Shown one piece after another: positions 12,019 to 26,202 of a stretch of DNA of 64,000 nucleotides (position 1 is its first letter; each line of letters opens with the position of its first letter). Origin of the DNA: Chlamydiales bacterium. Lineage in GTDB: Bacteria; Chlamydiota; Chlamydiia; Chlamydiales; JARBTQ01. The notes under the pieces are model-generated. The model was not told where the DNA came from and ran no database searches. It worked only from the letters and a program-made list of their open reading frames with translations. A program made the translations under genes and the position numbers. The DNA is taken from NCBI GenBank assembly GCA_029240075.1, contig JARBTQ010000010.1:83-64082 (forward strand), read 5' to 3'.

Positions 12019-15000
12019 ATGAAAGATTTCAGCTTCGATAGTACAAACCATTATTTCAATGGCAATGGAGATCACCTAAATAATAACAATAATAACGATA
12101 AAAAAAGCCCTTCTTTCTTTGTGCGTTTGTCTATTCCGGGTAAAGAGAAACTTTCTACAGAGATCATTAATCAGATAGGGGATCTTCTAGCACAATACTC
12201 TGTAAAACACTCTCTAAATCAGAGTACTGAAATAAAGGTTTTAGAAACTAACATCACCACTTCATCTATCCAAAATATTGCCAATAAATGTCTGTCCTTA
12301 AGTGCAGTAGAGGAAAAAGAAGTTGAAAACAAAATTTCCCAAGAATTCGAGCTAAGTAAAGGGATCCATTTACAATTCTTTACCAATGCTACAGAATATA
12401 TTGCAGAGCTAGTAGAGGGCAATAGAGTCAATGAATTACTGGATTATATTGAACTAAATGATTTAGAAGAATTAAAGCTTAATAAAGACCTTTTGCTTAA
12501 AACTGCTTCTAAGATTTTAGAGCATCCTTTACTGCTTTTAGCGGCACAAAATGGTAGAGCTAAAGCCTGTGAAAAGCTGATAGCTATAGGAGCAATTAAG
12601 AGTCATAAGGGAAAGGCTCTCTTGTTTGCTGTCAAAGCAGGTCATACTAAAGTCTGTGAAGTACTTTTAAGGAATAAGGCATCGACTGATTTTTTCGATG
12701 AAGAACAACAAATTCCCCCTTTAATGATAGCTGCAGCTGCAGGAAACGTAGAGCTTTGTAGGTTGCTACTTGAATTTGGAGCTACCATCAAAGATGTTGG
12801 TGTGCCAGATAAAACTGCTTTAAGTCTTGCTTTGGATAATAATCAAGCTCAAGTCTATAACCTTCTGGACTCTTATACTACAGCTGCTTTGCATATCGAA
12901 AAACTAATAGGTGATAAAGATATTAATAATCTACTGGATTATATTGAAGCCACTGGTCCGGCAGATCTTAGGCTCCATAAAAATCTCTTACTAGAATGGA
13001 AAGATTATTCAAAATGTACTTTACTCATACATGCTATCACATTAGGCAAAATTAAAGCGTGTGAAAATCTCATTGCTATTGGTGCTCATGTTAATATTGA
13101 AGTCTCATACGAGTATAACAGGGTTACCCCACTAACAATCGCTGCTGATAGTGGAAATAGGGATATTTGTAAACTACTTATAGAAAAAGGGGCAGATCTT
13201 GAAGCCAAAAGTGGAGATTATGAAAAAATGACTCCATTAATGCTTGCAGCTCGATCTAATAATAGAGAGAGTTGCGAATTATTGCTTAGTCTTGGAGCTA
13301 ATATCAATGCACAAGATGAGCGAGGGAATACGGTACTTATGATCGCGGCTAGGTCTGCCCGTAAAGAAGTTTGTGAATTGCTTTTAAGTAAAGAATATAA
13401 GGCTGATTGGACTCTTCTTAATGATCGTAAAGAAACAGCCTGTACGCTAGCTATTTTTAGGGGTAATATAGAAGTATGCAAATTATTTAAAGACTTAGCC
13501 GACGTTAATAGCCAATTTATTGCTGCCATTAAACAGAAGAAAGTAGAGCTCTGCAAACTATATATAGAATGGGGCGCTGATATTTCTCTGTTACATGAGG
13601 GTATGTCCCCTTTATATCTGGCTGCTAGCTTGGGGGAGGATGAAATTTGTGAACTGCTTTTAGAGAAAGGAGCTGATATTGCATTTCGCAAAGATGGGAA
13701 AAGCGTTTTAGTTGTTGCTATAGAAGCATCAGATGTTTCGAATAGGGTGAGGTTGCTTAAGCCTTTTGTTAAGCATGGAGCTGATTTTAAACAAGTCTTT
13801 CTAGAAGCCTTTAGTGAAAAAAAATTAGACCTTTGTATAAATCTCGATAGATTAGCAGATAGTTTTAGAATTAACCATGGTATCATCCCCCTTTTAATAA
13901 AGGCTATAAAAGAAAAAAATGGGGATGATTACACCTTCTTGAAGAGAGTATTAGGACTAAATGAAGATCAATTATTCATACAAGCAGTTGAAAAGGGGGA
14001 CGTTACTACTTGTAAGCTATTAATCGAAGAAGTAGAAAAAAGTGCTGATACTATTTCTAATCATGATAGCGTTTTAATCATTGCCGCTAGACGGGGTCAT
14101 ATAGAAATTTGCAAGTTGCTGCTGGAAAAAGGGGCTAGTATTGACTTAAAAAATAAAGAGGGGGAGACAGCCTTAATAACTGCTGTAAAAAAAGAAAATA
14201 TTGAGCTGTGTAGGTTTTTCCTGGAACAGGGTGCTAAAGCAGATTTAGCTAATGAGAAAGAACAGACTCCTTTGATGATTAGCGCTAGTGCGGGTAATAG
14301 AGAGATTGTTGAGTTATTGATTCATTATCAGGCTCGAGTCGATTTGCAAGACCATAAAGGAAATACAGCTCTTTCCCAAATTATACAGAGCTTAAAAACG
14401 GAGTACAACAATAAAGAATTAATAAAGAAAAAAAGGGATATTTGTAACCTACTGATAGAAAATGGAGCTTCAGGTAAAAAAAATGAGAATCTCAATAAAG
14501 CTTTTCTAGATGCAATATCTTCTCAGCAAACAGAGATTCGGCAGTTACTTCTAGAAAAAGGGGCTAATGTTAAAGCCTGTCTGATCCAAGCAGCAGAAAA
14601 TAACAATGAAGATGCCTTTAGGAGAATACAGGATCAATTTCCTCAGGATATAGATGAATGCTTTTTAGAAGCTATGACCAGTGAGAATAAAGCAGCTTGT
14701 AAGTTTTTTGTGTATTCCTCGCGGCTCTCAAAAAATAAGGAGATCGATATCCTGAAGCTTTTTGAAGATGCAGTTAAAAATGGCAATCTAAAAGTATGTG
14801 AATTTTTAAAAGAGTTAGATGAAAGTATTGTTCGTCGAGTATTTTTTAACATCTTTTATGACCATCAAACAGATGAAGGGGAGAGAATACAGCGTTGTAA
14901 ATTTTTGCTGCATTGGGAAAGTCTTATCAAATTAGATAGTTACTTTATAGAGTCTTTAAAAGAAGAAAAAACAAACCTTTGTAAATTTTTAATAAAAGTG

Positions 15001-26202: not shown

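Follow-up and report, generated by a model that had tools for sequence, protein, structure and literature searches.

What does an amoeba-associated chlamydia do with a protein of 4727 amino acids (aa)? The question is raised by one open reading frame (ORF), at 12019..26202 on the forward strand, in a 64,000-nucleotide (nt) stretch of contig JARBTQ010000010.1 from a metagenome-assembled genome (MAG) of a Chlamydiales bacterium; we refer to this stretch, at its full length, as the window. An earlier annotation made from the sequence alone (the original prediction) proposed that ankyrin arrays and enzymatic modules are joined here in one chain, and we find that they are—i.e. after the Ank_2 repeats come a cysteine protease-like domain (CPLD) and a superfamily 2 (SF2)-type ATPase. 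The ORF is a genuine gene and a member of the DUF3638/DUF3645 family of giant proteins. On balance, we lean toward a role as a host-delivered effector, in which ankyrins would bring targets to a thiol hydrolase of clan-CE-like type that is linked to an ATP-driven motor.

A single giant gene

The listed ORF and the composition check indicate a complete gene on the + strand, with an ATG start, 4727 codons, and a stop; a Shine-Dalgarno-like GAGG lies 8 nt 5' of the ATG. At the base composition of the window (36% G+C), stop codons occur at a frequency of 0.0726 per codon, so that the probability of 4727 codons without a stop is ~1e-155, and the frame is as uninterrupted as first claimed. Within 12019..26202, codon position 1 is enriched in G and position 2 in A, a codon-position composition that is typical of coding sequence. 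Competing ORFs had been described as short, which they are: the longest open stretches in the five other frames measure 236, 68, 63, 59, and 58 aa, and the sole competing listed ORF of at least 150 aa is antisense (13218..13886) and falls within the ankyrin-repeat coding region. No Rfam family was found within nt 9000–29000, and no intrinsic terminator was found 3' of the gene.

The product is identical to GenBank MDF2577315.1 (Chlamydiales MAG; 72-kb contig), a singleton in 90% clustering that carries the names 'MAG: uncharacterized protein K0S74_799 [Chlamydiales bacterium]' and 'ankyrin repeat protein'. It has a mass of 541 kDa and a pI of 6.1 and is predicted to be soluble, with neither a signal peptide nor a transmembrane or hydrophobic segment predicted across the whole protein.

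The conserved core and its relatives

Much of this protein is shared with a family of similarly large proteins. An exhaustive phmmer search with aa 1630–2829 as the query, run against 1.84 billion cluster representatives, returned 336 proteins at E ≤ 1e-3, 130 of them at E ≤ 1e-10, most being 2.7–4.3 thousand aa long. The matches have a fixed layout, in which NTGxG is followed after ~90 aa by QxxGxC and after another ~1700–1800 aa by GxGK[TS]. When one genome of each GTDB species was scanned by pattern, 29 loci were retrieved, nearly all of them in Chlamydiota MAGs (Parachlamydiaceae, Waddliaceae, Rhabdochlamydiaceae ('Ca. Acheromyda'), Simkaniaceae, and Neptunochlamydia) and a few in bins labeled Verrucomicrobia or Gammaproteobacteria. 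The full-length homologs to whose distribution the original prediction pointed are thus found mainly in environmental Chlamydiota. Open frames at the GTDB loci span 3000–4100 aa and are colinear with this protein in blastp from aa ~1580–1640 to aa ~4723; at least 46 full-length giants, 2.8–4.3 thousand aa in length, are colinear from aa ~1630 to the C-terminus. The conserved core—i.e. aa ~1630–4727, or ~3100 aa—carries both catalytic modules.

PF12340 (DUF3638) is matched in all 12 diverse relatives scanned (best E 5e-30), and the named relatives checked are all chlamydial or assigned to the PVC group. For example, the Simkania negevensis member (4224 aa) is named 'DUF3638 domain-containing protein'. 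Several MAGs hold 2–3 copies of the giant family. The top phmmer match, MDF2576608.1 (P0006/P0155, K0S74_92; 4268 aa), comes from the same MAG as our protein and shares 33% identity with it over the 1200-aa query; judged by sequence, the two are paralogues. Word-index homologue searches were nearly blind to the family, with 3 matches for the ATPase region, none for aa 1700–2900, and 1 for a 12-sequence CPLD profile, and scans of IMG/VR for giant-virus loci found nothing.

The architecture had been thought to match no characterized protein. The core, however, belongs to a catalogued family, DUF3638/DUF3645, and what stands of the claim is that no match is functionally characterized. As such, the giant protein is a new, unusually long member of a known, functionally uncharacterized family, and its architecture is not categorically new. 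DUF3638 proteins occur in eukaryotes and were described in 2025 as having undefined mechanisms (PMC12615304); the literature on them consists of mentions in passing, in fungi, microsporidia, and Tetrahymena.

Family members also appear in bins labeled Gammaproteobacteria or Verrucomicrobia (L017, CAWJOP010000009.1; L004/L013; L023). These are either mis-binned chlamydial contigs or a true spread to other host-associated bacteria.

A cysteine protease-like domain at the start of the core

The original prediction recognized two motif clusters in the C-terminal ~3500 aa, and both can now be identified. The first is the CPLD (aa 1640–2000; 16936..18018, +), delineated with an AlphaFold model and Foldseek and composed of a helical N-lobe with the GD and LEG motifs, three strands, and a catalytic helix. 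At the sequence level, this region has no match in Pfam, in PDB sequence profiles, or in NCBIfam, including its AnkH model, and Pfam DUF6606 was unmatched in scans of the giant protein and 12 relatives. AlphaFold gave an unusable model from a 2-sequence alignment (predicted local distance difference test, pLDDT, 38.6), while AF2 run on a 42-sequence alignment of short family members produced a model (mb537701f74fe) with a pLDDT of 87.6 and a predicted template modeling score (pTM) of 0.87.

Foldseek searches of the PDB with this model gave 6 significant matches, all of them to LegA15/AnkD (7kj6, 7xql, and 7ew8), with E 1e-6 to 1e-5, prob 1.0, and TM 0.46–0.52 over ~380 columns; beyond LegA15/AnkD, no PDB match fell below E 0.08. 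Against BFVD, which holds predicted viral structures, there were 7 significant matches (E 2e-9 to 3e-5), all 7 of them to N-terminal segments of proteins from Klosneuvirinae, giant viruses of amoebae and protists, that carry the name 'DUF3638 domain-containing protein' or 'ubiquitinyl hydrolase 1'. Harvfovirus supplies the best match (E 2e-9, TMq 0.64), and Hokovirus, Hyperionvirus, and Fadolivirus supply the rest. Because the N-termini of giant-virus DUF3638 proteins match the CPLD fold, the 'CPLD ... DUF3638 ATPase' architecture is shared beyond bacteria.

AnkH and LegA15 are translocated ankyrin-repeat effectors of Legionella with a 'cysteine protease-like domain' (PMC6712400; PMC9757750). 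The triad of AnkH (H243-D258-C324) can be superposed on XopD, a protease of clan CE, and the domain is similar to RavZ as well; across the AnkH family, the motifs read rGHa, D/NRg, and GNCSWANV (PMC6712400). H268-N290-C361 has been proposed as the triad of LegA15 (PMC9757750).

In the giant family, the motifs conserved across alignments of 15, 42, and 46 sequences are GD at 1652, LEG at 1667–69, LLLPxGW at 1771–77, GHAM at 1784–87, NTGxG at 1805–09, H1814, Y1870, and Q-R-S-G-T-C at 1895–1900. Specifically, H1785, N1805, Q1895, G1898, and C1900 are invariant in the alignments of 42 and 46. His1785 of GHAM (codon 17371..17373, +), the putative general base, begins a beta strand in the model; Asn1805 of NTGxG (NTGSG here; codon 17431..17433, +), the putative third triad residue, closes the next, antiparallel strand; and Q1895-R-A-G-I-C1900 (17701..17718, +) provides a putative oxyanion-hole Gln and a putative nucleophile Cys, the latter being the first residue of a long helix. 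A regex scan finds His at the 1785 position in 130 of 133 sequences, and Q..G.C at 1895–1900 is present in 142 of 142, a set chosen by that pattern. The context of C1900 is AGICS here, with a family consensus of GTCSW.

Two further positions bear on chemistry. In 104 of 130 sequences, this one (A1786) included, the catalytic His is followed by Ala, and the position at Cys+6, which in LegA15 is occupied by Lys367, is hydrophobic in the giant family. From the fold match, the H-N-C spacing (20 and 95 residues), and the GHAM/NTGxG/GTCSW consensus, we assign the modeled aa 1640–2000 to the AnkH/LegA15 class of CPLDs, with a putative clan-CE-like His-Asn-Gln-Cys active site. In the literature searched, a limited collection, we found no paper that links DUF3638 proteins to the AnkH/LegA15 CPLD.

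Many phmmer matches (P0005, P0031, P0041, P0060, and others) are 160–1100 aa long and consist of the CPLD alone. Most are probably giants truncated by contig ends; P0005 (610 aa, on a 7.6-kb contig) and some others may be genuine stand-alone CPLD proteins similar to AnkH/LegA15.

An SF2-type ATPase and the regions that frame it

The second motif cluster is an SF2-helicase-type NTPase (aa 3560–4330; 22696..25008, +), delimited by Pfam DUF3638 and DUF3645 and by motif conservation. PF12340 (DUF3638) covers aa 3581–3729 and, at 50.0 bits (E 3e-13), exceeds its cut-off of 31. The match to PF12359 (DUF3645) is weak (aa 3933–3954, 18.4 bits against a cut-off of 25), but it falls at the expected position downstream of DUF3638, with the conserved residues P3938, P3945, and F3951 present; among the 12 relatives, 4 match DUF3645 at E ≤ 1. 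The motif series begins with Q3599, Walker A (GGGKT 3625–29, with K3628), Walker B (DEFD 3783–86), and GYTGT at 4081, and continues through D4149-x-G, motif V (T-G4236-x-D, TG at 4235–36), and motif VI (Q4262-x3-R4266-x-R4268). Conservation is 96–100% among 24 and 46 homologues at Q3599, G3625, G3627, K3628, D3783, E3784, G4236, Q4262, R4266, and R4268. Since every SF2-type motif is intact, the ATPase is predicted to be active, and probably is. A PDB sequence search with the ATPase returned no related solved structure, only a marginal P-loop match to 9kwf.

The two catalytic modules are joined by a middle scaffold (aa 2001–3559; 18019..22695, +) that is colinear in all giants and moderately conserved; the stretch at nt ~20000–20900, which the original prediction described as beta-rich, lies within this scaffold and is conserved in homologues. 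The C-terminal region (aa 4331–4727; 25009..26199, +) is likewise colinear and moderately conserved, with blastp alignments that extend to aa ~4723. Neither the scaffold nor the C-terminal region has a Pfam, PDB, or PADLOC match.

A variable ankyrin N-terminus

Upstream of the core, the protein starts with a polar, Asn/Ser-rich leader (aa 1–117; 12019..12369, +) without a domain match, from which we infer a candidate secretion signal. The ankyrin-repeat region follows (aa ~118–1240; 12370..15738, +), identified by Pfam Ank_2 and by PDB ankyrin/DARPin matches. Pfam ankyrin signal spans aa ~165–1240 (Ank_2 E 1e-88, in 11 stretches), the final repeat being at aa ~1153–1240, and PDB sequence matches of the N-terminal part are exclusively to ankyrins or DARPins. 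The original prediction was right about the ankyrin content and described two arrays, of which we count about four clusters instead (aa ~165–290, 335–590, 650–860, and 1105–1240), with degenerate repeats in between. Its internal duplication is borne out: the peptides quoted map to aa 138 (nt 12430) and aa 303 (nt 12925), and residues 118–283 align in tandem with residues 283–455 at 35% identity (E 6e-21). A linker (aa 1241–1639; 15739..16935, +) with little conservation and no domain match, as judged from Pfam, PDB, and homologue alignments, leads into the core.

The N-termini of homologues, upstream of the core, are shorter than or different from that of this protein. P0006, P0007, and P0038 have a short ankyrin block immediately N-terminal to the core, and ankyrin N-termini 500–1100 aa long are also present in other relatives. 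Because the N-termini vary among relatives, the ~1100-aa ankyrin extension is an elaboration, specific to this lineage, of an 'adaptor' end that is itself variable.

Two relatives illustrate this end of the protein. In the same-MAG paralogue MDF2576608.1, the short ankyrin block occupies aa 556–648, immediately N-terminal to its CPLD. In a Waddliaceae MAG (L012), Sel1 repeats are found at 2495..3550, just 5' of the start of the giant ORF homologous to ours (tblastn E 7e-28), which suggests an exchange of repeat modules on the N-terminal side of DUF3638 giants.

Genomic neighborhood

The next gene upstream, on the same strand as the giant gene, encodes a 341-aa U-box protein (9953..10978, +; PF04564, E 5e-18), in which the U-box is C-terminal and the N-terminal 270 aa are without a match. 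The U-box is a eukaryote-type E3 ubiquitin ligase domain. Two genes upstream of the giant gene lies a 662-aa Sel1-repeat protein (6616..8604, +; Pfam). Both neighbors are eukaryote-like genes of host-interaction type. Housekeeping functions are encoded downstream and in other parts of the window: tRNA methyltransferases, MnmA, a polyprenyl synthase, Fpg, RecC, and a long UvrA.

Several other ORFs were recorded. The 1 kb that separates the U-box gene from the giant gene holds a 111-aa ORF (11108..11443, +), whose product contains two hydrophobic stretches, IFAFICITSTGAAIGAATRIAISII and GSIIGATAGICYTS, and is possibly a small, perhaps Inc-like, membrane protein. The ORF at 37345..43041 (−) encodes 1898 aa, matches UvrA_inter twice, and also matches ABC_tran and a UvrA DNA-binding domain; it looks like a duplicated or fused UvrA of ~2x the usual length. 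The window also encodes a Schlafen AlbA_2/HATPase_c_4/helix-turn-helix protein (188..1576, +) and a KAP-family P-loop NTPase (32314..33600, +), and both the Schlafen AlbA_2 and the KAP-NTPase types are often tied to conflict systems.

Proposed function and alternatives

The function that we favor, as somewhat more likely than not, is that of an effector acting in the host. The original prediction of a giant effector or toxin aimed at the host is thereby partly supported. The giant protein would be delivered into the eukaryotic host cell, where its ankyrin arrays would bind and select host targets. The CPLD, as a thiol hydrolase, might then act on a host protein or ubiquitin-like conjugate by cleaving an acyl bond, such as a peptide or isopeptide bond, and the ATPase, which the scaffold would keep at a constant distance, could remodel or translocate the substrate or a nucleic-acid or protein track, or gate access to the protease. 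An effector role is probable from its context and by analogy: the protein is soluble and lacks a signal peptide and transmembrane segments, its N-terminal repeats are variable, its neighbors are U-box and Sel1 genes, and its structural relatives are translocated effectors from Legionella.

Several observations weigh against this reading. For a type III substrate, 541 kDa is a very large mass. Chlamydiota carry a type III secretion system, and no family of that system was detected among the scanned ORFs of the window. Glu1903 (Cys+3; 17725..17727) occupies a position where 110 of 142 relatives (77%) carry Arg or Lys, whereas the other conserved positions of the active site are all canonical in this protein. 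The residue after the catalytic His, as inspected in the sequences, is Ala in most of the family and not an aromatic gatekeeper. The tie to canonical clan CE is indirect: Ulp1, XopD, and ChlaDUB structures are absent from the significant Foldseek matches, and Pfam scans of the CPLD and its relatives gave no Peptidase_C48 signal. The biochemistry of the relatives is also unfavorable: although its triad is required in vivo, AnkH showed no protease activity in vitro (PMC6712400), an atypical GTPase activity that depends on Cys361 and Lys367 is reported for LegA15, H268A having little effect (PMC9757750), and protease activity has so far been shown for no CPLD.

The question of whether the protein leaves the bacterium at all leads to the strongest alternative, which we consider unlikely—i.e. 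a non-secreted, intrabacterial giant ATPase, eukaryote-like and horizontally acquired, that acts on nucleic acids or in conflict and defense. SF2-type motors are typical of nucleic-acid enzymes, this very large protein has no verifiable secretion signal, and the DUF3638 family is endogenous in eukaryotes and giant viruses (PMC12615304). However, ankyrin arrays and U-box and Sel1 neighbors are hallmarks of host-directed proteins, the nearest solved relatives are translocated effectors, and multi-copy, fast-diverging paralogues with swapped N-terminal modules resemble effector families. A defense system, in particular, was rejected, as no PADLOC model was matched.

The CPLD could also be an atypical nucleotide hydrolase and no protease, in which case the protein would combine two NTPase activities and bind host trafficking factors; this we regard as improbable. 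LegA15 is the nearest solved structure, and GTP binding and hydrolysis via Cys361, with H268A having little effect, are reported for it (PMC9757750), but Lys367 of LegA15 (Cys+6) has no counterpart in the giant family, where the position is hydrophobic. Moreover, the invariant His and Asn and the invariant Gln at Cys-5 fit a thiol/imidazole hydrolase with an oxyanion hole and not the proposed GTPase mechanism. The hydrophobic Cys+6, together with the invariant His, Asn, and oxyanion-type Gln, thus favors thiol/imidazole hydrolase chemistry over the LegA15 mechanism.

A strict deubiquitinase is slightly less probable again. It is suggested by the automatic UniProt label of the giant-virus relatives, 'ubiquitinyl hydrolase 1', for which we found no experimental basis in the literature searched, and it draws on the CE-like order of the active site, the neighboring U-box E3 gene, and the resemblance of the AnkH CPLD to XopD and RavZ, which remove ubiquitin-like modifiers (PMC6712400). 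CE enzymes specific for ubiquitin or ubiquitin-like proteins have an aromatic gatekeeper after the catalytic His, which is essential in SnCE1 (PMC10643670), and the giant family lacks it (Ala in 104 of 130). Simkania has a DUF3638 giant, yet a deubiquitinase screen of this species by comparison of hidden Markov models described no candidate as DUF3638 or giant, as far as the descriptions go, and 4 of its 5 CE-clan candidates were inactive (PMC10643670). A relation to viral tegument-like deubiquitinases was also considered and dropped; the paper on them, searched by term, mentions no ATPase, P-loop, DUF, ankyrin, or giant, and refers to a helicase only in connection with Helitron RepHel proteins.

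Finally, it is very improbable that the ORF is an assembly chimera, a fused pseudogene, or a member of the lymphostatin/large clostridial cytotoxin family, for although the sequence is MAG-derived and alone in its 90% cluster, and Chlamydia species have lymphostatin-like cytotoxins, dozens of independent assemblies contain a colinear core, the catalytic residues are all intact, long ankyrin N-termini (500–1100 aa) recur in other relatives, and no glycosyltransferase, C58, or C80 domain is matched in Pfam at E ≤ 1. The original prediction had itself raised two of these doubts. That of a chimera gives way to the colinearity of the core with the full-length giants, the same-MAG paralogue included, and the toxin identity was rejected, as Ank families, DUF3638, and DUF3645 are the only Pfam matches of the whole protein at E ≤ 1.

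A broader proposal goes beyond the host-delivered effector and is tentative: the core might represent a hitherto unrecognized class of ATP-driven thiol-hydrolase machine, in which a clan-CE-like CPLD is coupled mechanically to an SF2 motor via a ~1500-aa scaffold, common to eukaryotes, amoeba-infecting giant viruses, and Chlamydiota, with the ~450-aa AnkH/LegA15 effectors of Legionella, Coxiella, and Rickettsia as minimal relatives of its N-terminal module. If it is true, working out this family would account for the DUF3638 giants and also for the chemistry of AnkH/LegA15, which is under dispute. Regardless, a family catalogued in fungi, ciliates, microsporidia, giant viruses, and chlamydiae now has testable active sites (His1785, Asn1805, Gln1895, Cys1900, and Walker A Lys3628) and a structural tie to the Legionella core effectors AnkH and LegA15, whose biochemistry is disputed (protease-like vs atypical GTPase). 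As a multi-copy family of 300–540-kDa proteins with variable ankyrin N-termini, these giants are likely to be major chlamydial host-interaction factors, and their distribution over amoeba-associated bacteria and viruses makes them useful for tracing how genes are exchanged within this niche.

Comparison with known systems

Lymphostatin (LifA/Efa1), the chlamydial cytotoxins, and the large clostridial toxins are likewise giant, soluble, host-directed, multi-domain proteins with a cysteine-protease module. In Pfam, our protein has no glycosyltransferase, C58/C80, or translocation-region match, and its domain set is entirely different.

In clan CE (Ulp1/SENP, XopD, ChlaDUB1, adenain, and YopJ), the catalytic order of His, Asp/Glu/Asn, Gln, and Cys is the same as here. 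In both, the His and the acidic or amide residue lie on adjacent antiparallel strands and the Cys opens a helix. By contrast, the Gln of our protein is at Cys-5 and not at Cys-6, and an aromatic gatekeeper after the His is absent.

The His, Asp, and Cys of Legionella AnkH occupy exactly the same secondary-structure positions as the corresponding residues in the model of the giant's CPLD (PMC6712400), and H268-N290-C361 of LegA15 and H1785-N1805-C1900 here have the same order and similar spacing. Motifs are similar between AnkH/LegA15 and the giant family (GHa, N/D-x-G, and G-x-C-S-W), whereas profile searches of PDB sequences and NCBIfam detect no sequence similarity between our protein and AnkH/LegA15. 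Unlike the giants, the Legionella CPLD proteins are stand-alone effectors of ~450 aa without a scaffold or SF2 ATPase; in addition, LegA15 Lys367 is not conserved in the giant family, and the loop from Asn to Cys is ~25 aa longer in the giant protein than in LegA15.

In the DUF3638/DUF3645 giants of eukaryotes, Klosneuvirinae, and Chlamydiota, the P-loop module is the same, as is the order of the parts—i.e. an N-terminal CPLD, ~1700 aa, and the ATPase—and the giant-virus members share the CPLD fold with our protein (E 2e-9, TMq 0.64). What sets our protein apart is its extra ankyrin extension of ~1100 aa, with which it reaches 4727 aa, as against 2.7–4.3 thousand aa in the other giants, and ranks among the longest of its kind.

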